Assembly (NCBI GenBank): GCA_003229115.1
Contig: QIHT01000241.1
Location: forward strand, 1 to 32,000
Direction: 5' to 3'
Source: Gammaproteobacteria bacterium
Lineage (GTDB): Bacteria > Pseudomonadota > Gammaproteobacteria > SZUA-229
Length of the DNA stretch: 32,000 nucleotides
Positions 17,724-32,000 of this stretch are shown in pieces; the stretch's first letter is position 1; every line of letters begins with the position of its first letter. The notes under the pieces are model-generated. The model was not told where the DNA came from, searched no databases, and saw nothing but the letters and a program-made list of their open reading frames with translations. The position numbers and the translations under genes are program-made.

Positions 17724-19771
17724 CTATTTTACCCGCATACCCGGTTGGGCGCCGTCATCGGGGGACAAAATCCACAGGTCTTTTTTACCAGGACCAGCAG
17801 CCAGGACCATGCCTTCAGATAAACCAAAGCGCATTTTACGCGGGGCCAGGTTGGCAACCATGACCGTCAGTTTGCCTTCCAGGTCTGCCGGGTCATAGGC
17901 CTCTTTAATCCCGGCAAAGACATTACGGGTCTCGCCGCCAATATCCAGTGTCAGTTGTAATAATTTATCTGCGCCTTCTACGTGGGCCGCTTTAATTATT
18001 TTCGCGATGCGCAAATCAACTTTTGCAAACTCGTCATAACTAATCTCATCCTTGATCGGGTCAGCGGCCAGTGGGCCGGTTGTTACGGTTGTTGCAGTGG
18101 TTTCTTCGGTCATGGTTAATCCTTCTTGAGCGGCTGTGAGCATGGCTTCGATTGATTTGGGTTCAATACGTTTTGCCAGGTGTTTAAACTTGTTGATAGA
18201 GGTTGGGAATGTTTTTCTGTCTTCCCAATTAAATTCTCGATCAAAACCGAACAATTCACGGGCAACACAGCCGGTGAGTGCAGGTAATATCGGTGTGAGC
18301 CAAATAGAGATGAGATAAAAGGAATGCAAACTGCGTGAGCAGACTTGATGCAATTTATCTCTTTGATCCGGGTCTTTTGCTAGCACCCAGGGCTCGTGTT
18401 TATTAATATATTCATTCGTAACATCAGCAATGTGCATGATGCTGCGTACTGCTTTGCTATATTCTCGCTGTTCAAAGGCTTCGAGAATTGAATCGCTCTC
18501 ACCACCTGTTGCGATTGGGTCAGTCATGTCAGATTCTGGTAGCAACTTGCCATCAAAATATTTACCAATAAAATTCGCCGTGCGACTGGCGATGTTGACA
18601 TATTTTCCAACCAGGTCACTATTTATCCTGGCAGTAAAATCATCAAAGTTAAGATCAATATCTTCAATACCATCAGACAACTTGGCGGCATAGTAATAAC
18701 GCAAGTATTCCGGGTTCAAATGATCGAGATAAGTGCTGGCATTAATAAACGTACCCCGTGACTTGGACATTTTTTTACCGTTGACGGTTAAAAAACCATG
18801 GGCATAAATGGCCGTGGGTATTCGATACCTGGCTATTGGCAGGATTGCAGGCCAGAACAGGGTAGAATATCTTTACCAATAAAATGATAAAGCTCGGTAG
18901 TGTCTTGTTTCCACCATTCGTCAAAATCCAGTCCCTTTTTATTGCACAGATCTTTAAAGCTGGCCATGTAACCCATGGGGGCATCGAGCCAGACATAAAA
19001 ATATTTACCCGGTGCATCGGGGATTTCAAATCCAAAGTAAGGCGCATCGCGGGAAATATCCCAGTCCTGGAGGCCGGCCTCCAGCCACTCGTTCATTTTA
19101 TTGGCCACTTCCGGTTGCACATGTTCTTCCAGAAAATTGCGTAACTGATCTGTGCATTTTGAAATTTTGAAAAAGTAATGCTCTGACTCTTTTTCGATGG
19201 GTTTGGCGCCAGTGATCACTGACACCGGGTTTTTTAATTCAGTGGCGTCATAGGTGGCGCTACACACTTCGCAGTTATCGCCGTACTGATCTTTGGCATC
19301 GCAGTTAGGGCAGGTGCCCTTAATAAAACGATCCGGTAAAAACATTTTCTTATCGGGATCGTAAAACTGGTTTATCGTTTTGTTTTCTATGTAACCTGCA
19401 TCTTGTAGTGACTTATAAATTGATTCAACAAATTCACGGTTTTCATCAGAGTGGGTGCTGTAATAATTATCGAATTGCACACCAAAGGCCTGAAAATCGG
19501 CCTGGTGTTCAGCATTCATTTTTTCGATCAGTGCTTCCGGAGTAATGCCTTCCTGCTGGGCCCGCAACATCACCGGCGTGCCGTGGGCATCATCGGCGCA
19601 GACGTAATAAATCTCATGGCCTTGCATGCCCGGGAAACGCATACGCAGAAAACGCACCCAAATATCGGTCTGGATGTATTCCACCAGGTGTCCCAGGTGA
19701 ATGGCACCATTGGCATAGGGCAGGGCGCTGGTTACCAGGATTTTTCGCGGTTTGTTAGCGGCTTGGGTCAT
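17724..19771 (-). pseudogene. metG: Methionine--tRNA ligase, disrupted by a frameshift near 18861-18865
   Basis: ORF 18833-19771 encodes the MetRS N-terminal half (HLGH motif, Zn knuckle CPNC...CEVC) up to HFIGKDI. ORF 17724-18770 encodes the C-terminal half (KMSKS, anticodon-binding and tRNA-binding domains). The second frame already reads [10 protein letters not shown]...[15 protein letters not shown] from 18872. Only 5 nt lie between the Ile codon of GKDI and the LFW codons, where E. coli MetRS has 5 codons (VYFHS). Confidence 0.9.
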
Positions 19772-21413: not shown

Positions 21414-22010
21414 TTGAAACTCGCTGAACTTACAACCATATCCGCTGGGCACCCATTTAGAGGGAAAATACCAGAAAAATCCGGTAGCGGTATCCGTGCA
21501 GTGCAGATGAAAGACATCTCTATTGATCAGGGGGTTTGCTGGGATAGTGTTATCGAGACAGAGCTTGCTGGCAAAAAACAACCTGACTGGCTAATAAATG
21601 GCGATATCCTTTTTGCTGCCAGAGGCTCGCGTAATTATGCCGTTCTGATTAATCAGGTTACAGGACAGGTTGTTAGTGCCCCGCATTTCTATATTTTACG
21701 TGTGAATGAGTCATCGCTTATGCCAGAATTTCTGGTCTGGCAGCTCAACCAAAAACCCCTGCAAAACTACTTTGACAAGTTAGCCCAGGGAAAATTAACC
21801 AAGAGTATTACACGCTCAATGCTAGAACACGCTGAAATCACCGTGCCACCACTAGAGAAGCAAACACAAATATTAGGATTGCATAAAACCTTGTTACAGG
21901 AAAAAAAGCTTTATGCCGTACTTGGCAGCAACGCAGATAAATTAATGAATTCGATTGCCAACGAACTTGTGGCAGGTAAAACACTACCGTTAAAAGGAAT
22001 GAAAATATGA
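21414..22010 (+). CDS. hsdS: Half-size type I restriction-modification specificity subunit (single target-recognition domain; TTG start)
   Basis: 198 aa. One TRD (GDILFAARGSRNYAVL, PHFYILRV, FLVWQL) followed by one conserved helix region (VPPLEKQTQILGLHKTLLQEKKLY). Stop overlaps the hsdM ATG (ATATGA). Confidence 0.7.
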   Translation: MKLAELTTISAGHPFRGKIPEKSGSGIRAVQMKDISIDQGVCWDSVIETELAGKKQPDWLINGDILFAARGSRNYAVLINQVTGQVVSAPHFYILRVNESSLMPEFLVWQLNQKPLQNYFDKLAQGKLTKSITRSMLEHAEITVPPLEKQTQILGLHKTLLQEKKLYAVLGSNADKLMNSIANELVAGKTLPLKGMKI

Positions 22011-23575
22011 GCACAACTATAAGCCCCAATCCGATTAGTCAGGACGCAATCAATAAAGCCCTATGGGGGGCGTGCGATACATTCCGTGGCACGGTCAGCG
22101 CCGATACCTATAAAGACTTTATCCTGACCATGTTATTCCTGAAATACATCTCGGATGTTTGGCAGGATCATTACGACAAATACCAGCAAGAGCATGGCGA
22201 CGAACCAGAACTCATTGTTGAGATGATGAAGAATGAGCGCTTTGTGCTGCCCGAAGGTTCAAGCTTTTACACCCTCTATGAAAAGCGTCATGAGCCGGGT
22301 AATGGTGAGCGTATCGACCAGGCGCTTCATGCATTGGAAGAAGCCAACGGTACCAAGCTCCGCGACGCATCAAAATCAGTGTTCCAGGATATAAGCTTTA
22401 ACACTGATAAGCTCGGTGAAGAAAAGCAAAAAAACACTATTCTTCGCCACCTGCTGGAAGACTTTGCCAAAGATGAGTTGAACCTTCGCCCCAGCCGTGT
22501 CGGCTCACTTGATGTTATCGGCAACGCCTATGAATATTTAATTAAGCACTTCGCCGCTGGTGGTGGGCAAAAAGCAGGGGAGTTTTATACCCCTCCCGAA
22601 GTATCTGACCTGATCGCAGAATTACTAGACCCACAAGAGGGCGACACAATCTCTGATCCGGCTTGTGGTTCTGGCTCATTGCTTATGAAATGTGGGCGTA
22701 AGATTAAAGCGCGTTTCAACAGCAAAAAATATGCGCTCTACGGGCAAGAGGCCATCGGTTCTACCTGGTCACTGGCCAAGATGAATATGTTCCTGCATGG
22801 GGAAGACAATCACAAAATCGAATGGGGCGACACTATCCGCAATCCAAAGTTATTGGATAAGAATGGTGGCTTGATGCATTTTGATATTGTCACCGCCAAT
22901 CCGCCATTCAGCCTCGATAAATGGGGCCATGATGAAGCGGATCATGATAAATATGGTCGTTTCCGTCGTGGCATACCACCAAAGACCAAAGGTGACTACG
23001 CCTTTATTCTGCATATGATCGAAACAATGAAACCCGCCTCGTCATCAAAACTGGGGGGACGCATGGGCGTGGTGGTTCCCCATGGTGTTTTGTTCCGTGG
23101 CAGTTCCGAAGGGAAAATTCGCACAAAATTGATTGAGGAAAACTTGTTGGATGCAGTGATAGGCTTGCCTGAAAAACTCTTTTACGGTACGGGCATACCC
23201 GCAGCGATTCTGATCTTCCGCAAGAATCGTCTTTCCCGCGAAGGCGGGAATCCAGGGGTTTTATTCATTGATGCCAGCCGCGAATGCAAAGCAGGTAAAA
23301 ACCAAAACCTGCTCACGCCAGAGAATATTGAAAAGATTGTTACGACCTATAAGGCGCGTAAAAGCGTCGATAAATACGCCTATCTGGCCAGTTTTGAAGA
23401 AATCCAGGAAAACGACTTTAACCTTAATATCCCGCGTTATGTTGATACCTTTGAGGAGGAAGAAGAAATTGATCTGATGGCAGTGCGTAAGGATAGGGAG
23501 GAATTGAAGGCGCAACTAGCTGAGCTGGAAACCGAAATGGATGGTTATCTAAAGGAGCTGGGTTATGGTTCCTGA
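22007..23575 (+). CDS. hsdM: Type I restriction-modification N6-adenine DNA methyltransferase subunit
   Basis: 522 aa. HsdM N-terminal domain, AdoMet motif DPACGSGSLL, catalytic NPPF (VTANPPFSL) and C-terminal coiled coil. Confidence 0.95.
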   Translation: MSTTISPNPISQDAINKALWGACDTFRGTVSADTYKDFILTMLFLKYISDVWQDHYDKYQQEHGDEPELIVEMMKNERFVLPEGSSFYTLYEKRHEPGNGERIDQALHALEEANGTKLRDASKSVFQDISFNTDKLGEEKQKNTILRHLLEDFAKDELNLRPSRVGSLDVIGNAYEYLIKHFAAGGGQKAGEFYTPPEVSDLIAELLDPQEGDTISDPACGSGSLLMKCGRKIKARFNSKKYALYGQEAIGSTWSLAKMNMFLHGEDNHKIEWGDTIRNPKLLDKNGGLMHFDIVTANPPFSLDKWGHDEADHDKYGRFRRGIPPKTKGDYAFILHMIETMKPASSSKLGGRMGVVVPHGVLFRGSSEGKIRTKLIEENLLDAVIGLPEKLFYGTGIPAAILIFRKNRLSREGGNPGVLFIDASRECKAGKNQNLLTPENIEKIVTTYKARKSVDKYAYLASFEEIQENDFNLNIPRYVDTFEEEEEIDLMAVRKDREELKAQLAELETEMDGYLKELGYGS

Positions 23576-24770
23576 TGGTTGGGATATTCAAACAATCGCA
23601 GATATAGCTAAAGTTACGTCAGGAGGAACTCCAAGCCGTAAGAATGATGCGTATTGGGAGGGTAATATTCCTTGGGTTACGACTGCTGAAGTTCATTTTA
23701 ATACTATTGTAGATTCAGAGCAGAAAATAACTAAATCTGGGCTTGATAATTCTTCTGCCAAGTTATTTCCTTCAGATACCATCCTAATGGCTATGTATGG
23801 TCAAGGAAAAACTCGTGGGCAGGTGGCAAAGCTAGGTATAGAGGCGAGTACTAATCAAGCTTGTGCCGCCATCTTACTCAAAGATAATTTAAGCACGGAC
23901 TATTATTACTTATTCTTGCAAAGCCAATATAAGAATATTCGAAATTTAAGTAACTCGGGTGGACAGAAAAACTTGAGTGCGTGTTTAGTCAAGTCCATTA
24001 AAGTTCCTGTTCCACCGCTACTTGAACAAAAGAAAATCGCCAAAATCCTATCAACATGGGATCGAGCGATTGAGGTAACAGAAAAGCAAATCAGCAACAG
24101 TCAGCAACAAAAAAAGTTCCTTATGCATCAACTCCTCACCGGAAAAAAACGCCTTCCCGGCTTTAGTGGGGAGTGGGAAAAAAAAGTTCTTTCCAAGATA
24201 GCAGATATTGTGATGGGCTCGTCACCTAAGTCTGAGAGTTATAATAATCACGAAAAAGGCTTGCCCTTGTTACAGGGGAACGCAGATATAAAAAATAGAT
24301 TATCTGCTCCAAGAGCCTATACATCCCAAATAACTAAGGAATGTCTAGTTGATGATATTTTGCTTAGTGTTAGAGCGCCTGTTGGCGAAGTTTCTCGTTC
24401 AATTCATCACGCGTGTATCGGGCGAGGTATAGCGGCAATAAGAGCCAAAGAAGATACATCTCAAAATTATCTATATCAATGGCTATTGTACTTTGAACCA
24501 AAATGGGAAAAGTTGTCACAGGGGAGCACATTTGAAGCTGTTAATAGTAACGATATTAAAACATTGTATATTGATGTCCCTCAAAAAGAAGAACAACAAA
24601 AAATAGCTTTAATCCTTTTCTCTGCCGATAAAGAAATTGAAACCCTAAAGCAAAAACTTGAATGCGTCCGCCAAGAGAAAAAGGCACTAATGCAACAACT
24701 CCTCACCGGCAAACGCCGCGTGAAAATTGATGAGGATGATGTTCCTATCAAGGAGGTTGTGCGTGCCTGA
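23565..24770 (+). CDS. hsdS: Type I restriction-modification specificity subunit (two TRDs)
   Basis: 401 aa. Starts MVPDGW. Two TRDs, each followed by a conserved repeat (PPLLEQKKIAKILS...LMHQLLTGKKRL and PQKEEQQKIALILF...LMQQLLTGKRRV). 11-nt overlap with hsdM. Confidence 0.92.
   Translation: MVPDGWDIQTIADIAKVTSGGTPSRKNDAYWEGNIPWVTTAEVHFNTIVDSEQKITKSGLDNSSAKLFPSDTILMAMYGQGKTRGQVAKLGIEASTNQACAAILLKDNLSTDYYYLFLQSQYKNIRNLSNSGGQKNLSACLVKSIKVPVPPLLEQKKIAKILSTWDRAIEVTEKQISNSQQQKKFLMHQLLTGKKRLPGFSGEWEKKVLSKIADIVMGSSPKSESYNNHEKGLPLLQGNADIKNRLSAPRAYTSQITKECLVDDILLSVRAPVGEVSRSIHHACIGRGIAAIRAKEDTSQNYLYQWLLYFEPKWEKLSQGSTFEAVNSNDIKTLYIDVPQKEEQQKIALILFSADKEIETLKQKLECVRQEKKALMQQLLTGKRRVKIDEDDVPIKEVVRA
24752..24768 (+). 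repeat. Junction repeat copy 1 (GGAGGTTGTGCGTGCCT: RBS + GTG start)
   Basis: Matches 25830-25846 (GGAGGTTGCGAGTGCCT) at 15/17 positions. Both copies contain the stop-proximal codons of the upstream gene plus GGAGG, 6 nt and GTG-CCT of the downstream gene. Confidence 0.7.
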
Positions 24771-25848
24771 TATTATTTCATTCGCAGATGCTATTGCAGA
24801 CTCAGAGCAATATAAAAAACGTCATTTGTTGTTAGGGAATGGCTTTAGTATTGGCTGCCGTGCCGACATATTCCATTATGAGTCTCTCTTTGGGGAAGCT
24901 GATTTTTCGGGTATGCCTGAGGCGAAACAGGTTTTTGAGTCTTTGCAGACCCAGGATTTTGAAGTAGCAATTCGAGCGCTTGAGAGTGGCTCAAAAATTC
25001 TTCCTGTCTATGCGCCCAATGATGTCGCAAGTGTTCAGGCAATGAGCAAACACGCTATTGCTCTCAAAGATTTACTGGTGGCCACAATCGCTGGTAATCA
25101 TCCACCCAGCCCTAATGCTATAGACAATCAAGAGTTTTGGGCTTGTCGAAATTTTTTGAGTAATTTTCTTGCGCCTGATAAAAGCGGGTATGTATTCACC
25201 CTGAACTATGATCTGCTTCTGTATTGGGCATTAATGCATAGCGACAATCTTTTTGACGAGAAGACTGTTGAGCTTAAAAAAAATGATGGCTTTGATAATG
25301 ATGAAGATGACCCGGATGCTGATTATGTTGTCTGGCAAGGTGAAACAGCTGCGCATAGTGCAAATGTCCTTTTCCTGCATGGCGCGCTTCATCTTTTTGA
25401 TTCGGGCGCAGAGCTTCAAAAATATACCTGGGTTCGCAAGGGTGAGCCACTGGTAGATCAAGCACGTAGCGCAATAACTGCAAATAAATTTCCACTTTTT
25501 GTGGCCGAAGGCACGAGCACCCAGAAGAAAAACAAAATTCGTCACAATGCATATTTATATCAGTGTTTCAAGGTACTGACGGCCAATGCACAGACTGGCA
25601 CACATTGTTTTTTCATCTTTGGCCATTCATTGGCTGATAATGACGATCACATTCTTAAGCGTCTTGGCAAAGGTCGTTTCAAAAAATTATATGTAGGTAT
25701 TTTCGGAGAAGCAGATAATCCAGAAAACAAAAAAGTAATTGCGCGTGCCAACGCTATAGCGGCGCTAAGGCATAATCGATATCCGCTTGAAGTTGTCTTT
25801 TTTGATTCTGCTTCTGCCAATGTTTGGGGGGAGGTTGCGAGTGCCTAG
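24763..25848 (+). CDS. DUF4917-like protein with SIR2-type motifs (candidate NAD-consuming defence effector); start at GTG 24763
   Basis: AGGAGG RBS 6 nt before GTG 24763. The protein begins MPDIISFADAI. Contains LLLGNGFS (GxGxS-like), TLNYD and LHG motifs, in the order and spacing seen in SIR2/SIR2_2-type domains. Overlaps the hsdS stop. Confidence 0.75.
   Translation: MPDIISFADAIADSEQYKKRHLLLGNGFSIGCRADIFHYESLFGEADFSGMPEAKQVFESLQTQDFEVAIRALESGSKILPVYAPNDVASVQAMSKHAIALKDLLVATIAGNHPPSPNAIDNQEFWACRNFLSNFLAPDKSGYVFTLNYDLLLYWALMHSDNLFDEKTVELKKNDGFDNDEDDPDADYVVWQGETAAHSANVLFLHGALHLFDSGAELQKYTWVRKGEPLVDQARSAITANKFPLFVAEGTSTQKKNKIRHNAYLYQCFKVLTANAQTGTHCFFIFGHSLADNDDHILKRLGKGRFKKLYVGIFGEADNPENKKVIARANAIAALRHNRYPLEVVFFDSASANVWGEVASA
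25830..25846 (+). repeat. Junction repeat copy 2 (GGAGGTTGCGAGTGCCT)
   Basis: See 24752-24768. Confidence 0.7.
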
Positions 25849-26296
25849 AAATATATCCATCAATAATAATAAGATGTACTACGTTTCGGCTTTTTTCTTG
25901 AATTTCCGTGTAAGACACTACATTTCATGTAACACAGTCGCCACGTTTAATTCTTATAGGGATAACACACAACATTGGTGGTTTTCTATTATTAATGATG
26001 TGCTGCAAATTATTGACGAATGGGATACTAGTGCATATAGTAATACCACAACTCTCCCCTTGCAGGGTTATTCATTTAACTACTGTTCGGGGCGGAAAAA
26101 CCGCCTTTTGGGCGGTTTTTTCATTTCTATTCGTAAATCAAATAAAGGTCATCCCGTTCGGCTGGTTGATTACCAGCTGAGTAATAATTCTGTTTGGACA
26201 AGAAAGCGCATTACAAGTGATGCGTTAGTGAATGCCTGCGTAGCGCTGCGGCATAAACATGGTAACGTAAAAATTACACTGGGGGATTGGAAATGA
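25841..26296 (+). CDS. Doubtful hypothetical ORF (151 codons from GTG 25841)
   Basis: For: open frame, GGAGG + GTG initiation context identical to the upstream gene, and a stop overlapping the rhuM ATG (ATGA). Against: no recognisable family, odd Asn/Ser/Tyr-rich composition and a strong terminator-like hairpin in its middle. Confidence 0.25.
   Translation: MPRNISINNNKMYYVSAFFLNFRVRHYISCNTVATFNSYRDNTQHWWFSIINDVLQIIDEWDTSAYSNTTTLPLQGYSFNYCSGRKNRLLGGFFISIRKSNKGHPVRLVDYQLSNNSVWTRKRITSDALVNACVALRHKHGNVKITLGDWK
26091..26121. terminator. Bidirectional terminator-like hairpin (ggcgg-aaaaa-ccgcc-ttttg-ggcgg-tttttt)
   Basis: aaaaaccgcc/ggcggttttt 10-bp stem with a 5-nt loop and a T-run on the plus strand. 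The alternative ggcgg/ccgcc pairing gives a hairpin plus T-run on the minus strand too. Confidence 0.6.
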
Positions 26297-27354
26297 GTAA
26301 AGATGGCTTCAACACCCAGTATCCTTCATTGAGCATACAAGATGAAGTTACCGATTTTCTGTTGTACACCGCCCCTAACAGTAAAGTCAAAGTTGAGGTT
26401 TTACTCAACAATGAGACCTTATGGCTGACACAGAAACGCATGTCTGAATTGTTCAATGTGGGTGTGCCAGCAATATCTAAACATCTAAAAAATATTTTTG
26501 ATACCAATGAGTTAGAGCAAGTTGCAGTTATTTCCATTTTGGAAACAACTGCCGAAGATGGAAAAAATTACCAAATCAAATATTACAACCTGGATGCTGT
26601 TATATCGGTTGGTTATCGGGTCAATTCAGCACAGGCAACCCAGTTTCGTATCTGGGCAACCCGGCTAATTAAAGAGTACATCATCAAGGGTTTTATTATG
26701 GATGATGAGCGTTTGAAAAACGGGCGCTATTTTGGCAGGGATTATTTTAAAGAGCTGTTAGAACGTATCCGTTCTATCCGTGCCAGCGAACGACGTATTT
26801 ACCAACAAATTACCGACATCTTTGCTGAATGCAGCATCGATTATGATCCAAAATCAGAAACCACGCGGCAATTCTATGCCCATGTACAGGATAAATTTCA
26901 CTATGCCATAACCGGGCAAACTGCTTCAGAGATTATATTTAACCATGCCGATGCCAGTAAGCCGCTGATGGGCATCAGGGCATATAAAAACTCACCCGAT
27001 GGTCGTATTCTCAAATCTGACACAACCATTGGTAAAAATTATCTACAAGAAGACGAGATTAAAAAATTGGAGAGAACGGTATCCGGTTTCTTTGACTATA
27101 TCGAAGGGATTGTAGAGCGTCGAACCAGTTTCACCATGGAAATATTTGCAGAGAGCGTGAACAAATTTCTGGATTTTCATGAATATAAAATCCTCGAAGG
27201 CCATGGAAAAATCACCCGCAAACTGGCAGAGCAGAAAGCGCTGGAGGAATACGAAAAATTTAATAAAACTCAGAAAATAGAATCCGACTTTGATAAAAAA
27301 ACCAAAGCACTGTTAAAAAGTGCACAGGAAAATAAGGGAGAGGTTGGTGAGTAG
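26293..27354 (+). CDS. rhuM: RhuM-family protein (track start 26287; ATG at 26293)
   Basis: About 353 aa. Strongly RhuM-like: LWLTQKRMSELFNV, YYNLDAVISVGYRVNS..ATQFRIWAT and ERRIYQQITDIF. Sits in the usual position between hsdS and hsdR. Confidence 0.85.
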   Translation: MSKDGFNTQYPSLSIQDEVTDFLLYTAPNSKVKVEVLLNNETLWLTQKRMSELFNVGVPAISKHLKNIFDTNELEQVAVISILETTAEDGKNYQIKYYNLDAVISVGYRVNSAQATQFRIWATRLIKEYIIKGFIMDDERLKNGRYFGRDYFKELLERIRSIRASERRIYQQITDIFAECSIDYDPKSETTRQFYAHVQDKFHYAITGQTASEIIFNHADASKPLMGIRAYKNSPDGRILKSDTTIGKNYLQEDEIKKLERTVSGFFDYIEGIVERRTSFTMEIFAESVNKFLDFHEYKILEGHGKITRKLAEQKALEEYEKFNKTQKIESDFDKKTKALLKSAQENKGEVGE

Positions 27355-27377
27355 TGTGAGTCATAGTGGGTATGTCT

Positions 27378-27457
27378 GGTTCCCACACTCCCGCGTGGGA
27401 ACCGATACGGCAGCTGAATTTAGCCAGTCTATGCATTCCCACGCAGGAGCGCGGGAA
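27378..27457. repeat. REP-like palindromic elements (two hairpins) in the rhuM-hsdR spacer
   Basis: ggttcccac-actcccgc-gtgggaacc (27378-27403) and ttcccacgc-agga-gcgcgggaa (27436-27457, one mismatch). Both share the TTCCCAC/GTGGGAA core. Confidence 0.5.
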
Positions 27458-27480
27458 CGAGAGCTAGAGGGGCAATTGCC

Positions 27481-30400
27481 ATGTCTGTAACGCTCCCTAA
27501 ATTCCAGGAAGAATACAGCGCGAAGATTCCGGCATTAACGCTGCTTCATAATCTTGGTTGGATTTTTTTATCACCTGAGCAAGCTTTGTCTTCTCGTAAT
27601 GGCAAAACGAGCGAAGTGGTTTTGCGTGAAGTGTTGCGAGAAGAGCTTCGCAAACGTCGTTTTACATTTGCCGGGAAAGAGCGAGTTTTTTCTGAAAATA
27701 CAATTGATAACGTGATAGCTGAGTTATGCTCACCGGCTTTGAATGAAGGCCTGAGTATCGCCAATGAAAGAATCTACAACCATTTGCTTTATGGACTATC
27801 GGTTAAAGAGTTTATTGACGGCAAGAAAATCAATCCCACAATACAGATTATCGACTGGGACAATGTTGAAAATAACAGCTTTCTTTTCACTGAAGAGTTT
27901 AGCGTTTTACGCACAGGAGGTTTTGAGTCCCGCAGGCCGGATATTGTCTGTTTTGTGAATGGCTTGCCATTCGCTGTTATCGAGGCGAAGCGTCCTGATG
28001 GTCATGCTAAGAAAGGCCCAACTATTGACGAAGGTATTTCGCAAAATATTCGCAATCAACGCAATGATGAAATCCCTCATTTATTTTCCTACGTGCAGCT
28101 TCTTTTTTCAATCAATGGGGCAGAGGGTCGTTACGGTACACAGGGTACACCATATAAATTTTGGGCACCCTGGCGTGAAGAAGATATTAGCGAAGGAGAA
28201 TTCTATCGGCTTAAGAATAAGCCTTTGAGTTCTGAGGCTAAAGACACTTTGTTTTCGCATCGACCCAAGCAGGATCGTGAGTGGTATGAAAACCTGATTG
28301 CTGGTGGCGAGCTGGCGGTCACAGAACAAGACAAAATACTTGCAAGTATTCTTTCCCCATCACGGCTGATAGAAATGACAAGATATTTCGTACTGTTTGA
28401 TAAGAAAATCGGCAAAGTGGCTGCCCGTTATCAGCAGGTATTTGGTATTAAGCGCTTAATTGAGCGAATAAACACAAAAGATAATAAGGGTGCGCGCCAG
28501 GGCGGTGTGATATGGCATACCACGGGCTCTGGTAAATCTTTTACCATGGTCTTTTTATCGAAAGCACTTATTTTACATAGCACGCTGAAACAATGCCGCA
28601 TTGTGGTTGTGACTGATCGTGTTGATCTGGAAGGACAGTTAAGCACGACATTCAGTACAGGTGGTGAGCTTGCCAGCAAAAAAGACAAGGCAGCGGCGAT
28701 GGCAACATCGGGCAGAAGACTTGCCAAACAGATTTCCCAAGGCAATGAACGAATAATCTTTTCCATCATTAATAAATTTGCTGTTGCTGCCAAAATGCCA
28801 GAGTGCCACAACCCAAGTTCTGACATTATCGTGCTTATTGATGAAGGGCATCGTTCCCAGGGCGGTGAAAACTTTGTCCGTATGCGCCATACACTGCCTA
28901 ATGCCGCTTTTATTGCGTTTACAGGCACGCCATTATTAAAAGACGATAAAACAGAAAATAAATTTGGCCCGATTGTTCATGCCTACACCATGCAACGAGC
29001 GGTTGAGGATAAAGCCGTTACGCCATTGCTTTATGAGGAACGCATTCCTGACCTTGATGTGAATGAACGAGCCATTGATAGCTGGTTTGACCGGATTACT
29101 GAGGGCTTAACAGAAAAGCAGAAGACAGACCTGAAAAAGAAATTCGCCAAGAAAGGGCACCTCTATCAATCCGAAGATCGGATTCGTTTGATTGCTTATG
29201 ATATTGCCAATCATTTTGTGAAGAATATTGATGAAGGATTAAAGGGGCAGATTGCTTGCGATAGTAAATTATCAGCCATTAAATATAAGCAATTTATAGA
29301 TGAGCTTGGCTTGTTTGAGACTGCTGTTGTCATGTCTGCACCGGATACCCGAGAAGGAAATACGGATGTTGATGAAGCCACTATTCCAGAAGTAGCAAAA
29401 TGGTGGAAGGAAAATGTGGGCTCACAGGACGAGAAGATTTATACCAGGAATATAGTCAAACGATTTGAAGAAGACGATGATCCTAAAATACTCATTGTTG
29501 TCGATAAATTACTCACTGGATTTGACGAGCCGAGGAATACGGTTCTCTACATTGATAAACCCCTCAAAGAACACAACCTGATTCAGGCTATTGCGCGGGT
29601 TAATCGTTTGCACGAGAAAAAGAAATTTGGCTTGCTCATCGATTATCGCGGTATTTTAGCCGAACTGGATACGACAATAGCGAAATATCAGGACTTGGCA
29701 AGTCGCACCCAAGGTGGATTTGATATTGCAGACCTTGAAGGTCTCTATCAACAAATGAGCACCGAGTATAAAAAACTCCCACACTTGTATAACGATCTAT
29801 TGGCAATATTCAAGAATGTTAAAAATAAAGGCGATATTGAACAGCTTCGTCAGGTTATAGTCCCTAAAGTAGAAGAACAGTATAGCGAAATGGTAGATGT
29901 AAATTTGAAAGTACGTGAAGATTTCTATGATCGATTAAGTGAGTTCGCCAGTTGCTTAAAAGTGGCCTTGCAATCTGCCAGTTTTTACGAGGATAAAAGT
30001 TTTACGGAGCAAGATAGAAGACACTATAAGGAAACCGTTAAGCAATATTCATCATTGCGCCAACTTGCCAAAGCGGATGCAGGTGAAACCGTCGATTACG
30101 ATGAATATGCCGAGAAAGTGAAAAAGCTGATGGATAAGCATGTAGTGGGCGTTGAGGTTAAAGAGCCAGACGGGGTTTATGAAGTTGGCAAAATGGGTAA
30201 AAAATCTGATCCGAAAGACTGGTCAGACGACAAAACCCGGAATGAAACCGATATTATAAAAACGCGCATTACTCGCATGATCGAGCAAAGTTTACGCGAT
30301 GATCCTTATGCCCAAGAAGTTTTCTCTAAACTGCTTAAACGGGTAATAGAAGAAGCAGAAACACTGTTCGATCATCCTTTGAAACAGTACATGCTTTTCA

Positions 30401-30762
30401 AGGAGTTCGAGGAAAAGGTCGAAAAGCGTGAAGTCGATGGCTTGCCAGACAGATTTGCAGATAATAAACACGCTCAAGCCTATTACGGTATTTTGAAAAT
30501 GGTTGTTGGTGAAAATATTTCTTCTATTGATGAAGCGTTATCAGATCGATGGGTAGGGCTTTCTTTCAATGTAGACGAGATTATTACCAATGCTATAGCC
30601 GAACACTCAATAAATCCTCAGAACATTGAATCCGAAATTCGAAAAAAACTCCTCCCCATGATTTTTGGCGAGTGCAAAAAAGTCGGGTCGGGTATGGTTC
30701 AGGCAAAGGTAATGATTGAAAAAATTGTACAAATTGTGCGTGTGGGATTGAGCCGCGTATGA
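27481..30762 (+). CDS. hsdR: Type I restriction endonuclease subunit R
   Basis: 1093 aa. N-terminal PD-(D/E)xK nuclease (RPDIVCFVNGLPFAVIEAKRP), helicase motif I TGSGKS, motif II DEGH and motif VI QAIARVNR. Confidence 0.95.
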   Translation: MSVTLPKFQEEYSAKIPALTLLHNLGWIFLSPEQALSSRNGKTSEVVLREVLREELRKRRFTFAGKERVFSENTIDNVIAELCSPALNEGLSIANERIYNHLLYGLSVKEFIDGKKINPTIQIIDWDNVENNSFLFTEEFSVLRTGGFESRRPDIVCFVNGLPFAVIEAKRPDGHAKKGPTIDEGISQNIRNQRNDEIPHLFSYVQLLFSINGAEGRYGTQGTPYKFWAPWREEDISEGEFYRLKNKPLSSEAKDTLFSHRPKQDREWYENLIAGGELAVTEQDKILASILSPSRLIEMTRYFVLFDKKIGKVAARYQQVFGIKRLIERINTKDNKGARQGGVIWHTTGSGKSFTMVFLSKALILHSTLKQCRIVVVTDRVDLEGQLSTTFSTGGELASKKDKAAAMATSGRRLAKQISQGNERIIFSIINKFAVAAKMPECHNPSSDIIVLIDEGHRSQGGENFVRMRHTLPNAAFIAFTGTPLLKDDKTENKFGPIVHAYTMQRAVEDKAVTPLLYEERIPDLDVNERAIDSWFDRITEGLTEKQKTDLKKKFAKKGHLYQSEDRIRLIAYDIANHFVKNIDEGLKGQIACDSKLSAIKYKQFIDELGLFETAVVMSAPDTREGNTDVDEATIPEVAKWWKENVGSQDEKIYTRNIVKRFEEDDDPKILIVVDKLLTGFDEPRNTVLYIDKPLKEHNLIQAIARVNRLHEKKKFGLLIDYRGILAELDTTIAKYQDLASRTQGGFDIADLEGLYQQMSTEYKKLPHLYNDLLAIFKNVKNKGDIEQLRQVIVPKVEEQYSEMVDVNLKVREDFYDRLSEFASCLKVALQSASFYEDKSFTEQDRRHYKETVKQYSSLRQLAKADAGETVDYDEYAEKVKKLMDKHVVGVEVKEPDGVYEVGKMGKKSDPKDWSDDKTRNETDIIKTRITRMIEQSLRDDPYAQEVFSKLLKRVIEEAETLFDHPLKQYMLFKEFEEKVEKREVDGLPDRFADNKHAQAYYGILKMVVGENISSIDEALSDRWVGLSFNVDEIITNAIAEHSINPQNIESEIRKKLLPMIFGECKKVGSGMVQAKVMIEKIVQIVRVGLSRV

Positions 30763-31508
30763 GAAATTTAGTCACACCAGCAACGGGTTCAATTCAATAT
30801 GGAGATACATCCATTAATTTTTCTATAGAACCCAGAGCAACAGACACTCCAAAAGTCTTGATAAAAGTGCATCCAGATTGTCGTGTAGTCGCACATGCTC
30901 CGCCAAGGGCTTCTCATGATGAAATTTTACAGGCAGTAAAGAAGAGGGCACGATGGGTTTGTAAACAGATGCATTACTTTGACAAACAGCGCGAAAATAT
31001 TCTCCCACGGCGTTATGTCAGCGGTGAAAGTCATTTTTATCTTGGACGCAGACATTTGTTAAAGGTTAAGGCGGCAGCTAATTGCGTCCCTAAGGTGAAA
31101 TTGTTGCAGGGTGTTTTAGAAGTGTGGGCACACAAAACAAAACCAGAACAAACAAAATCTATGCTTTTTGACTGGTATAGAGTGCGCGCTAGAGATGTAT
31201 TTGATCGTAGACTGGAAGAAGTTGTTTCTAAAACATTATGGGTAAATGATAAACCATCTATACGACTTTTTTCTATGCAGACACAATGGGGCAGTTGTTC
31301 ACCGAAAGGGCAGTTGACACTTAACCCCCATCTGGTGAAAGCCCCGAGGGACTGTATTGATTACGTGCTTCTCCATGAGCTTTGTCATATTGCAGAGCAT
31401 AATCATAGCGAACGATTTTATCGGCTAATGAAGCAAGTCATGCCTCACTGGGAGAAAGTAAAAGAAAGGCTCGATGGTATGGCATACTTTTATTTGAATG
31501 ATACATAG
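30759..31508 (+). CDS. YgjP-like (DUF45/SprT-like) zinc metallopeptidase
   Basis: 249 aa. QWGSCS and YVLLHELCHIAEHNHSERFY (HExxH) motifs. 4-nt overlap with hsdR. Confidence 0.85.
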   Translation: MRNLVTPATGSIQYGDTSINFSIEPRATDTPKVLIKVHPDCRVVAHAPPRASHDEILQAVKKRARWVCKQMHYFDKQRENILPRRYVSGESHFYLGRRHLLKVKAAANCVPKVKLLQGVLEVWAHKTKPEQTKSMLFDWYRVRARDVFDRRLEEVVSKTLWVNDKPSIRLFSMQTQWGSCSPKGQLTLNPHLVKAPRDCIDYVLLHELCHIAEHNHSERFYRLMKQVMPHWEKVKERLDGMAYFYLNDT

Positions 31509-31663: not shown

Positions 31664-32000
31664 TTATAATTTAGTACGATGTTGTTTTTTTATATCCAGG
31701 CTGATGTTTTTATTTACACCCGCCTTATTTGCAAATTCCTGCCACTTATCAACGGCAGTCATAACTTCATCCAGGATTTCTTCTGGCCTGGAGAGGCTAA
31801 TAGATTTTCCAGTCTTGATTAATTCTTTTTTGGTGAAGTGATCACGTTTCCCGTTCACACTCATTTGGTGTTGATTAGTCCACTTGCCAGCCGGGTTGTG
31901 TGAGTACATCACGTCATAAGCAGGTGATAACTTCCATTTCCCATTGGGGTCCATTAAAAATGAAATATTTTTAGTGTGATCATCTTGATTGCGCGCAATG
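31664..32000 (-). CDS. hipA: HipA-family kinase toxin, C-terminal part (gene continues past the window end)
   Basis: The frame stays open to nt 32000 and reads IARNQDDHTKNISFLMDPNGKWKLSPAYDV, matching the HipA_C catalytic region (DDH.kN..fl....w.LsPaYD). Confidence 0.8.
   Translation of the reverse strand, partial: IARNQDDHTKNISFLMDPNGKWKLSPAYDVMYSHNPAGKWTNQHQMSVNGKRDHFTKKELIKTGKSISLSRPEEILDEVMTAVDKWQEFANKAGVNKNISLDIKKQHRTKL

Follow-up and report, generated by a model that had tools for sequence, protein, structure and literature searches.

The hsdS–hsdR interval of a type I restriction–modification operon contains a DUF4917 gene

We analysed a 32,000-nucleotide (nt) stretch of DNA (hereafter the window; contig QIHT01000241.1, positions 1 to 32,000) from a gammaproteobacterium of the SZUA-229 lineage, in which a gene of the DUF4917 family sits between the specificity gene hsdS and the restriction gene hsdR of a type I restriction–modification (R-M) operon. 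The open reading frame (ORF) of this gene, at 24763–25848 on the forward strand, comprises 361 codons followed by a TAG stop. Its start codon is GTG 24763, preceded by AGGAGG (24751–24756) with a 6-nt spacer, and the hsdS stop TGA falls at 24768–24770, resulting in an 8-nt overlap between the two genes (GTGCCTGA). Homologues start at the equal position, with GTG in two related loci (L004 and L046) and with ATG in a third (L005). Both the sequence and these homologue starts agree with an initial annotation of the window, which had proposed this start, ribosome-binding site, overlap and protein length.

Shared transcription with the R-M genes, together with translational coupling to hsdS, means that the DUF4917 protein would be made whenever the R-M system is. 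In 34 genome loci found through the DUF4917 protein, about 21 share one gene order: a half-size hsdS, hsdM, in some cases a RhuM gene, hsdS, DUF4917, in some cases an insert of up to 6 kb, hsdR and a YgjP-like peptidase gene. Hosts of this embedded order include Alpha-, Beta- and Gammaproteobacteria, as well as metagenome-assembled genomes of Lentimicrobiaceae and Thermodesulfobacteriota. The hsdS stop and the DUF4917 start overlap by 1, 4 or 8 nt in 20 of the 23 embedded loci, and in about 10 embedded loci the DUF4917 stop overlaps the hsdR start as well. Retention of the former overlap in 20 of 23 cases indicates that translational coupling between hsdS and DUF4917 is real and conserved, bearing out the coupling inside the R-M operon that had been suggested for the single locus.

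The DUF4917 protein is predicted to have a SIR2 fold and active site

The family assignment, likewise proposed at the outset, rests on a full-length match to Pfam DUF4917 (PF16263; 216.5 bits against a cutoff of 28, E = 7.6e-64), with residues 22–355 covering profile positions 1–311 of 311. The protein also matches the PADLOC hidden Markov models (HMMs) for PDC-S21 (PDLC04960, E = 8.7e-121; PDLC04961, E = 1.7e-67), and no NCBIfam model matches it. We found 5673 homologues at E ≤ 1e-5, falling into 2403 clusters at 50% identity, nearly all of them single-domain proteins of 330–380 amino acids (aa). No relatives were detected in phage genomes by tblastn or among the viral predicted structures of BFVD, arguing that the family is not phage-borne.

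Three motifs follow one another in the protein: LLLGNGFS (residues 22–29, nt 24826–24849), TLNYD (residues 146–150, nt 25198–25212) and LHG (residues 205–207, nt 25375–25383), in the order in which they had been noted originally. An alignment of 81 homologues at 32–89% identity shows that their core positions are invariant (G25, N26, G27, F28, S29, Y149, D150, H206 and G207), while N148 is 94% conserved.

We built an AlphaFold2 model on this 81-member alignment (predicted local distance difference test score 94.6, predicted template-modelling score 0.92) and compared its fold with the Protein Data Bank (PDB) using Foldseek. The model predicts one Rossmann domain with an all-helical insert at about residues 39–136, following the NAD-binding loop. 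All 29 Foldseek matches at E ≤ 1e-3 are chains of SIR2-HerA antiphage entries, with template-modelling scores of 0.5–0.62, the best being 8su9_D, the SIR2 NADase subunit of SIR2-HerA (E = 7e-11, template-modelling score 0.58–0.62). DSR2 (E = 3e-3) and classical sirtuins rank below these chains, all at E = 2e-3 or worse. Consistent with the structural ranking, hhalign of the family profile against the SIR2_2 protein of a SIR2-HerA pair gave E = 2.6e-5 and a probability of 75%, with all three motifs aligned.

Residue correspondence was taken, for that purpose only, from a profile alignment to PsSIR2 (8w9l) at E = 0.3, which pairs NYDLL and LHG of the DUF4917 protein with TTNYDLL and LHGS of PsSIR2. 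In this alignment, N148, D150 and H206 fall on N163, D165 and H212 of PsSIR2, the residues published as catalytic in that enzyme (PMC11472057). The Cys4 zinc module is absent: the protein has four scattered cysteines and no CxxC, and only C128 is conserved (80%) across the 81 homologues. Also, the 361-aa, single-domain protein has no sensor domain.

Together, the alignments and the predicted structure support a SIR2 fold with a complete active site, consisting of the GNGFS loop, N148/D150 and H206. Judged by its model, the protein is a divergent SIR2 branch nearest to defence NADases, and it is probably a small, NAD-consuming SIR2-fold enzyme. The expectation of a SIR2 fold with catalytic Asn and His thus held at the level of Foldseek, hhalign and the PsSIR2 alignment, while a direct Pfam match to SIR2 or SIR2_2 was not obtained; the accompanying remark that no separate sensor domain is present fits a single Rossmann domain with a helical insert, in a family whose members are mostly 330–380 aa long.

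The hsdS–hsdR interval is a hotspot for defence cargo

We also sampled loci through HsdM, comprising 80 metagenome loci at 81–91% identity and one Escherichia coli relative; 47 of these loci hold both hsdM and the hsdR start, and all denominators of 47 refer to them. This R-M lineage has the layout half-size hsdS, hsdM, hsdS, optional cargo, hsdR and YgjP-like peptidase. Between hsdS and hsdR, 44 of 47 loci carry 0.3–6 kb of cargo and three carry none; DUF4917 fills the slot in a single case out of 47. When 74 cargo ORFs were classified with Pfam, the families found were RhuM (7), SMODS and AGS_C with SLATT_6 (CBASS-like, 6), SIR2_2 (4, three of them with HerA), novel STAND NTPases (4), TIR (3), AAA_15/21 ATPases (3), UPF0149/SEC-C (PDC-S12, 3), McrBC (2), KAP NTPases (2) and GmrSD (2), besides further families. 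E. coli relatives hold different cargo again, and the slot of the window carries two cargo genes, DUF4917 and RhuM. As the slot is nearly always filled, and by varied, self-sufficient modules, the hsdS–hsdR interval of this lineage (loci L045–L125) is a general defence hotspot. Slot cargo is almost always co-oriented with the operon, and a second, smaller cargo slot lies between hsdM and hsdS.

DUF4917 genes also occur outside this setting: about 8 of 29 close homologues stand alone or belong to other defence islands, and so do most of the distant homologues. A tblastn search covering about 10 kb of flank identified homologues at 62–65% identity without a type I R-M gene, whose neighbours are HEPN and GmrSD genes, a kinase/helicase pair, an integrase or plain metabolic genes. 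More distant members reside on Leptospira plasmids amid toxin–antitoxin genes; adjoin retron Eco8 and ABC-3C or, in another case, ABC-3C and HEPN; sit in a Vibrio cassette array, beside TIR and PLD genes or beside a GmrSD-HNH gene; are located between a type III-like R-M system and a Gabija-like pair, or near Shedu; or are found in conjugative-plasmid regions with ArdC-like peptidases. A 52-sequence neighbour-joining tree places solo forms among embedded ones and vice versa, showing that the gene has entered and left R-M operons several times. One further locus (L011, 1–1972) holds tandem DUF4917 paralogues, 74% and 32% identical to the protein of the window.

A candidate NAD+-consuming effector and alternative roles

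We consider it reasonably probable that the DUF4917 protein is an NAD+-consuming effector of the SIR2 type that acts autonomously, travels as cargo and is expressed together with the R-M system, adding a second layer for when restriction fails. In such a scheme, a stand-alone SIR2-family enzyme would travel as a passenger in the hsdS–hsdR slot and would destroy NAD+ once a phage escapes restriction, acting as a second-line defence of the abortive-infection type. By analogy with PsSIR2 and ThsA, its own small domain may hold it inactive, and it could be switched on by a phage-derived cue or by oligomerisation, like other defence SIR2 enzymes. We infer the NADase chemistry, the anti-phage role and the mode of triggering alike.

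Among known systems, the SIR2 subunit of SIR2-HerA (Nezha) is the best structural match, sharing the aligned Asn/Asp/His triad, a size of about 360–400 aa, a layout of one large and one small domain, and the lack of a zinc module. The two differ in that the protein of the window is only about 14% identical and belongs to Pfam DUF4917 rather than SIR2_2. Pfam searches revealed no HerA-type ATPase among its operon neighbours (hsdS, orfX, RhuM and hsdR), and genuine SIR2-HerA pairs occur as alternative cargo of the same slot in other genomes. DSR1, DSR2 and Thoeris ThsA likewise have a SIR2 catalytic domain and an expected logic of NAD+ depletion; however, they possess either a large sensor domain (DSR2 is about 1000 aa long) or a SLOG domain and a TIR partner, whereas the DUF4917 protein is a single domain of 361 aa, and no TIR or SLOG gene was detected with Pfam within the R-M operon (21414–31508).

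The gene is a full-length match to PADLOC PDC-S21, a candidate consisting of one gene and recognised by its location inside BREX, DISARM or type I R-M loci, as seen in the window, and nothing sets it apart from that family. PADLOC's PDC candidates were proposed through 'guilt by embedding' in such loci, and most of them still await testing (Payne et al., bioRxiv 10.1101/2024.01.29.577857). PDC-S21 is named in no searchable paper that our literature search retrieved, and the portion of the Payne et al. supplements open to searching mentions neither DUF4917 nor PDC-S21. Searches on SIR2 with type I R-M embedding, and on SliP with phage defence, returned nothing relevant. The only characterised DUF4917 protein is Campylobacter jejuni SliP (Cjj81176_0779), whose gene shares an operon with a type I hsdR; purified SliP lowers NAD+ about 2-fold in vitro, and the G24A and G26A substitutions in its G-N-G loop reduce activity (PMC10421069). 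Compared by its published description, SliP has the same Pfam family, the same G-N-G NAD loop and a type I R-M operon in common with the protein studied here. The initial annotation knew of no functional characterisation of a coupled R-M and SIR2-like arrangement for this family, but the arrangement is not unknown: PADLOC lists embedded PDC-S21, and SliP, encoded in an R-M operon, has been characterised and consumes NAD+. The fold assignment, the family and the embedding are already in databases or papers and, with the family catalogued as an embedded defence candidate, our finding is confirmatory rather than surprising.

Several observations weigh against a passenger effector of phage defence. 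Pfam SIR2 and SIR2_2 give no match to the protein at E ≤ 0.01, a profile search of PDB sequences reaches SIR2 chains only at the non-significant E = 0.3, and a PDB-chain search with the single sequence returned chance matches only; homology becomes visible only through profile–profile comparison and structure. Our literature search found no NAD+ turnover or phage phenotype for any PDC-S21 gene. The SliP authors read their protein as a flagellum-secreted histone/lysine deacetylase and virulence factor, and phage defence was not considered (PMC10421069). In one locus (L131, 7001–8104), a 39%-identical homologue is packed inside a fatty-acid beta-oxidation operon, in the order acyl-CoA dehydrogenase, DUF4917, thiolase, enoyl-CoA hydratase and 3-hydroxyacyl-CoA dehydrogenase, which hints at a metabolic, deacylase-like role for part of the family. 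Finally, the association with the slot recurs among homologues of 40–90% identity, whose codons overlap those of the neighbouring genes at both ends. In two loci (L130 and L137), a homologue of just 40% identity fills the same hsdS–hsdR slot with overlapping codons, and another homologue follows a pair of HsdR and an M/S fusion. This association is more intimate than simple hitch-hiking requires, and a slot shared by 40%-identical homologues points to a recurrent affinity of the family for type I R-M loci.

One alternative is that the protein is a guard of the R-M complex. PrrC, an abortive-infection effector encoded between hsdS and hsdR of the EcoprrI type I R-M locus and co-expressed with it, is a model for R-M guarding, and the DUF4917 gene is placed like prrC, between the same two genes of an R-M operon. 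By this account, HsdM2S or HsdR would hold a sensor-less SIR2 NADase inactive, and a phage anti-restriction factor (of the Ocr, ArdA or Stp type) would release NAD+ depletion, which would explain the missing sensor domain. The overlaps with hsdS (20 of 23 embedded homologues) and hsdR (about 10) fit this account, as do the distant homologues in the same slot of the same R-M lineage and behind the fusion pair, and SliP too shares an operon with hsdR. Nevertheless, we regard a guard as unlikely. The slot is a generic hotspot that hosts complete autonomous systems, and it contains DUF4917 in just one of 47 loci of the lineage; solo homologues at 62–65% identity are common, of equal length and nested among the embedded ones; and numerous members of the family are encoded on plasmids or within defence islands, away from any R-M system. 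The fold and chemistry of PrrC, an ABC-ATPase plus tRNA nuclease, are unrelated to those of the DUF4917 protein. PrrC is almost exclusively embedded in type I R-M loci (Payne et al., bioRxiv 10.1101/2024.01.29.577857), an occurrence that DUF4917, being frequently solo, does not share. The filled slot, its varied cargo, the single occurrence among 47 loci and the interspersed tree therefore weaken the idea, raised in the initial annotation, that the R-M complex itself is the trigger, and we found no specific support for it. If a guard it were, SliP would be recast as a defence protein, and the family would represent a PrrC-like guard using NAD+ depletion instead of tRNA cleavage.

Quite unlikely, in our estimate, is a sirtuin-type protein deacylase of the kind claimed for SliP, whose bacterial or host protein targets would tie it to regulation or virulence and not to phage defence. 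The SliP study reports NAD+- and Zn-stimulated lysine deacetylation together with a virulence phenotype, although its assays show small-fold changes with a commercial histone deacetylase kit (PMC10421069). A deacylase would make sense in the beta-oxidation operon described above, and the catalytic Asn/His set is common to deacylases and NADases. The zinc-binding Cys4 module, however, is absent, a single Cys column being conserved; the nearest structures are defence NADases (E = 7e-11) rather than sirtuins (2e-3 or worse); and the genomic context consists overwhelmingly of defence islands, R-M operons and mobile elements. Furthermore, the closest relatives of the window in sequence collections are environmental metagenome-assembled genomes, making a SliP-like, host-directed role unlikely here. 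Another NAD-using chemistry or role is very improbable, be it ADP-ribosyl transfer (some SIR2-family enzymes are ADP-ribosyltransferases), an establishment or anti-defence function on mobile elements (the conjugative-plasmid neighbours DUF2958, DUF736, ParB and zincin-like, ArdC-like proteins could mark such a region, by analogy with plasmid leading regions) or an accessory that modulates R-M, as nothing specific in the window supports it, no homologues were found in phage genomes and no viral fold matches in BFVD, and the conserved triad is equally compatible with plain NAD+ hydrolysis.

Should the DUF4917 protein prove to act as a defence NADase, it would rank with the smallest SIR2 effectors described. 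Having neither partner gene nor sensor domain, it would pose a clean question of how the off-state is held and how the enzyme is switched on, and it would call into doubt the view, published for SliP, of a secreted histone deacetylase. Comparison of the loci further delineates a well-defined cargo hotspot, which belongs to a type I R-M lineage that is widespread.

A duplicated hsdS tail marks the 3′ end of DUF4917, and a second cargo gene follows

The domain and defence assignments of the genes in the window (Table 1) were obtained from Pfam and PADLOC HMM searches.

Table 1 Features of the type I R-M operon in the window
Feature	Position	Strand	Evidence
Half-size HsdS-like gene, 198 aa, single target-recognition domain	21414–22010	+	Methylase_S E = 1.2e-6; PADLOC Specificity_I
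hsdM, type I methyltransferase subunit	22007–23575	+	N6_Mtase E = 4.4e-103, HsdM_N; PADLOC MTase_I
hsdS, full-length specificity subunit, two target-recognition domains, tail KEVVRA-stop	23565–24770	+	Methylase_S E = 9.4e-51 in 2 stretches; PADLOC Specificity_I E = 6.6e-125
Shine–Dalgarno AGGAGG of the DUF4917 gene, within the hsdS 3′ end	24751–24756	+	Read from the sequence
DUF4917/PDC-S21 gene, 361-aa single-domain protein with predicted SIR2 fold	24763–25848	+	PF16263 E = 7.6e-64; PDC-S21 E = 8.7e-121
G25-N-G-F-S29, predicted NAD-phosphate-binding loop following strand beta1	24835–24849	+	Invariant in 81 homologues; aligns with GTGTS of SIR2_2 protein
N148-Y-D150, predicted catalytic Asn/Asp	25204–25212	+	Aligns with N163/D165 of PsSIR2 (8w9l)
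H206-G207, predicted catalytic His	25378–25383	+	Aligns with H212 of PsSIR2; invariant
Second copy of the hsdS-tail junction sequence, forming the last codons of the DUF4917 gene (GEVASA-stop)	25830–25857	+	Copy 1 at 24752–24779
Spacer, 444 nt, with formally open frame orfX (25841–26296)	25849–26292	+	No assignable function
RhuM-family gene, second embedded cargo	26293–27354	+	Virulence_RhuM E = 1.4e-101; PADLOC PDC-S05 E = 1.1e-146
hsdR, type I restriction/translocase subunit	27481–30762	+	HSDR_N, SWI2_SNF2, T1R_D3-like, ResIII; PADLOC REase_I 1426 bits
YgjP-like (WLM/SprT-like) metallopeptidase	30759–31508	+	Pfam YgjP-like E = 2.4e-54

At its 3′ end, the DUF4917 gene carries a second version (GGAGGTTGCGAGTGCCTAGA) of the last 19 nt of hsdS (GGAGGTTGTGCGTGCCTGA). 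A degenerate pattern, GGAGGTTGNGNGTGCCT, with 15 specified bases has two matches in the window and none in 100 shuffles, and the full tail repeat (D5) spans 28 nt at 75% identity between its two copies, including the Shine–Dalgarno sequence for the next gene. One related locus (L005) shares the DUF4917 tail and about 130 nt beyond, followed by an Abi_2 gene at the place of RhuM in the window. In two others (L004 and L046), the DUF4917 gene lacks the tail, ends in WGND and a stop, and runs directly into hsdR. The duplicated tail may represent a recombination joint, at which an hsdS tail of another operon and its downstream cargo recombined behind the DUF4917 gene, and it suggests how cassettes get stacked in the hsdS–hsdR slot.

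Beyond the second tail copy, the spacer contains a good sigma-70-like promoter (26013–26041) and then the strongest terminator-like hairpin of the region (26094–26122), as located by a promoter and terminator scan. The 151-aa frame orfX has a stop that overlaps the RhuM start (ATGA) and matches nothing in Pfam, PADLOC, NCBIfam, plasmids or E. coli, and Rfam detected no known RNA in the spacer. We rejected orfX as a conserved partner gene: no homologues were found, it is absent from L004 and L046, only the approximately 130 nt are shared with L005, and the terminator-like hairpin falls within it. The spacer might encode a small RNA, serve as a leader or mark the boundary of a cassette.

The second cargo gene of the slot, RhuM, belongs to PDC-S05; one such gene conferred about 1000-fold protection on its own in a study whose tested systems did not include PDC-S21 (preprint 10.1101/2024.09.26.614923). 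Most DUF4917-bearing relatives have RhuM between hsdM and hsdS instead. RhuM accompanies DUF4917 in about 15 of 23 embedded loci, compared with 10 of 47 HsdM-sampled loci, counts that ignore phylogenetic kinship. Between RhuM and hsdR lies a palindromic, GC-rich pair resembling repetitive extragenic palindromes (27375–27401 and 27436–27462), with 27-nt arms that are 85% complementary.

The half-size hsdS, which comes in addition to the full-length gene, has a stop overlapping the hsdM start. It lies upstream of hsdM in 42 of 69 and 16 of 18 related loci, with a highly variable sequence (23–79% identity). At the other end of the operon, the start of the YgjP-like peptidase gene overlaps the hsdR stop, and the gene follows hsdR in 36 of 36 and 17 of 17 related loci. 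The peptidase is thus a constant, and seemingly integral, member of the lineage; in other settings, its SprT/WLM relatives are DNA–protein-crosslink proteases.

The island is chromosomal and adjoins mrp and metG. The latter, the methionyl-tRNA synthetase gene (17724–19771, reverse strand), is split into two ORFs (18833–19771 and 17724–18770) by a 62-nt gap, with the catalytic-domain model partly missing, suggestive of a frameshift, a sequencing error or a pseudogene. A short ORF on the reverse strand (31664–31954) matches only the C-terminal part of the toxin kinase HipA; it probably represents a gene fragment where the island ends.

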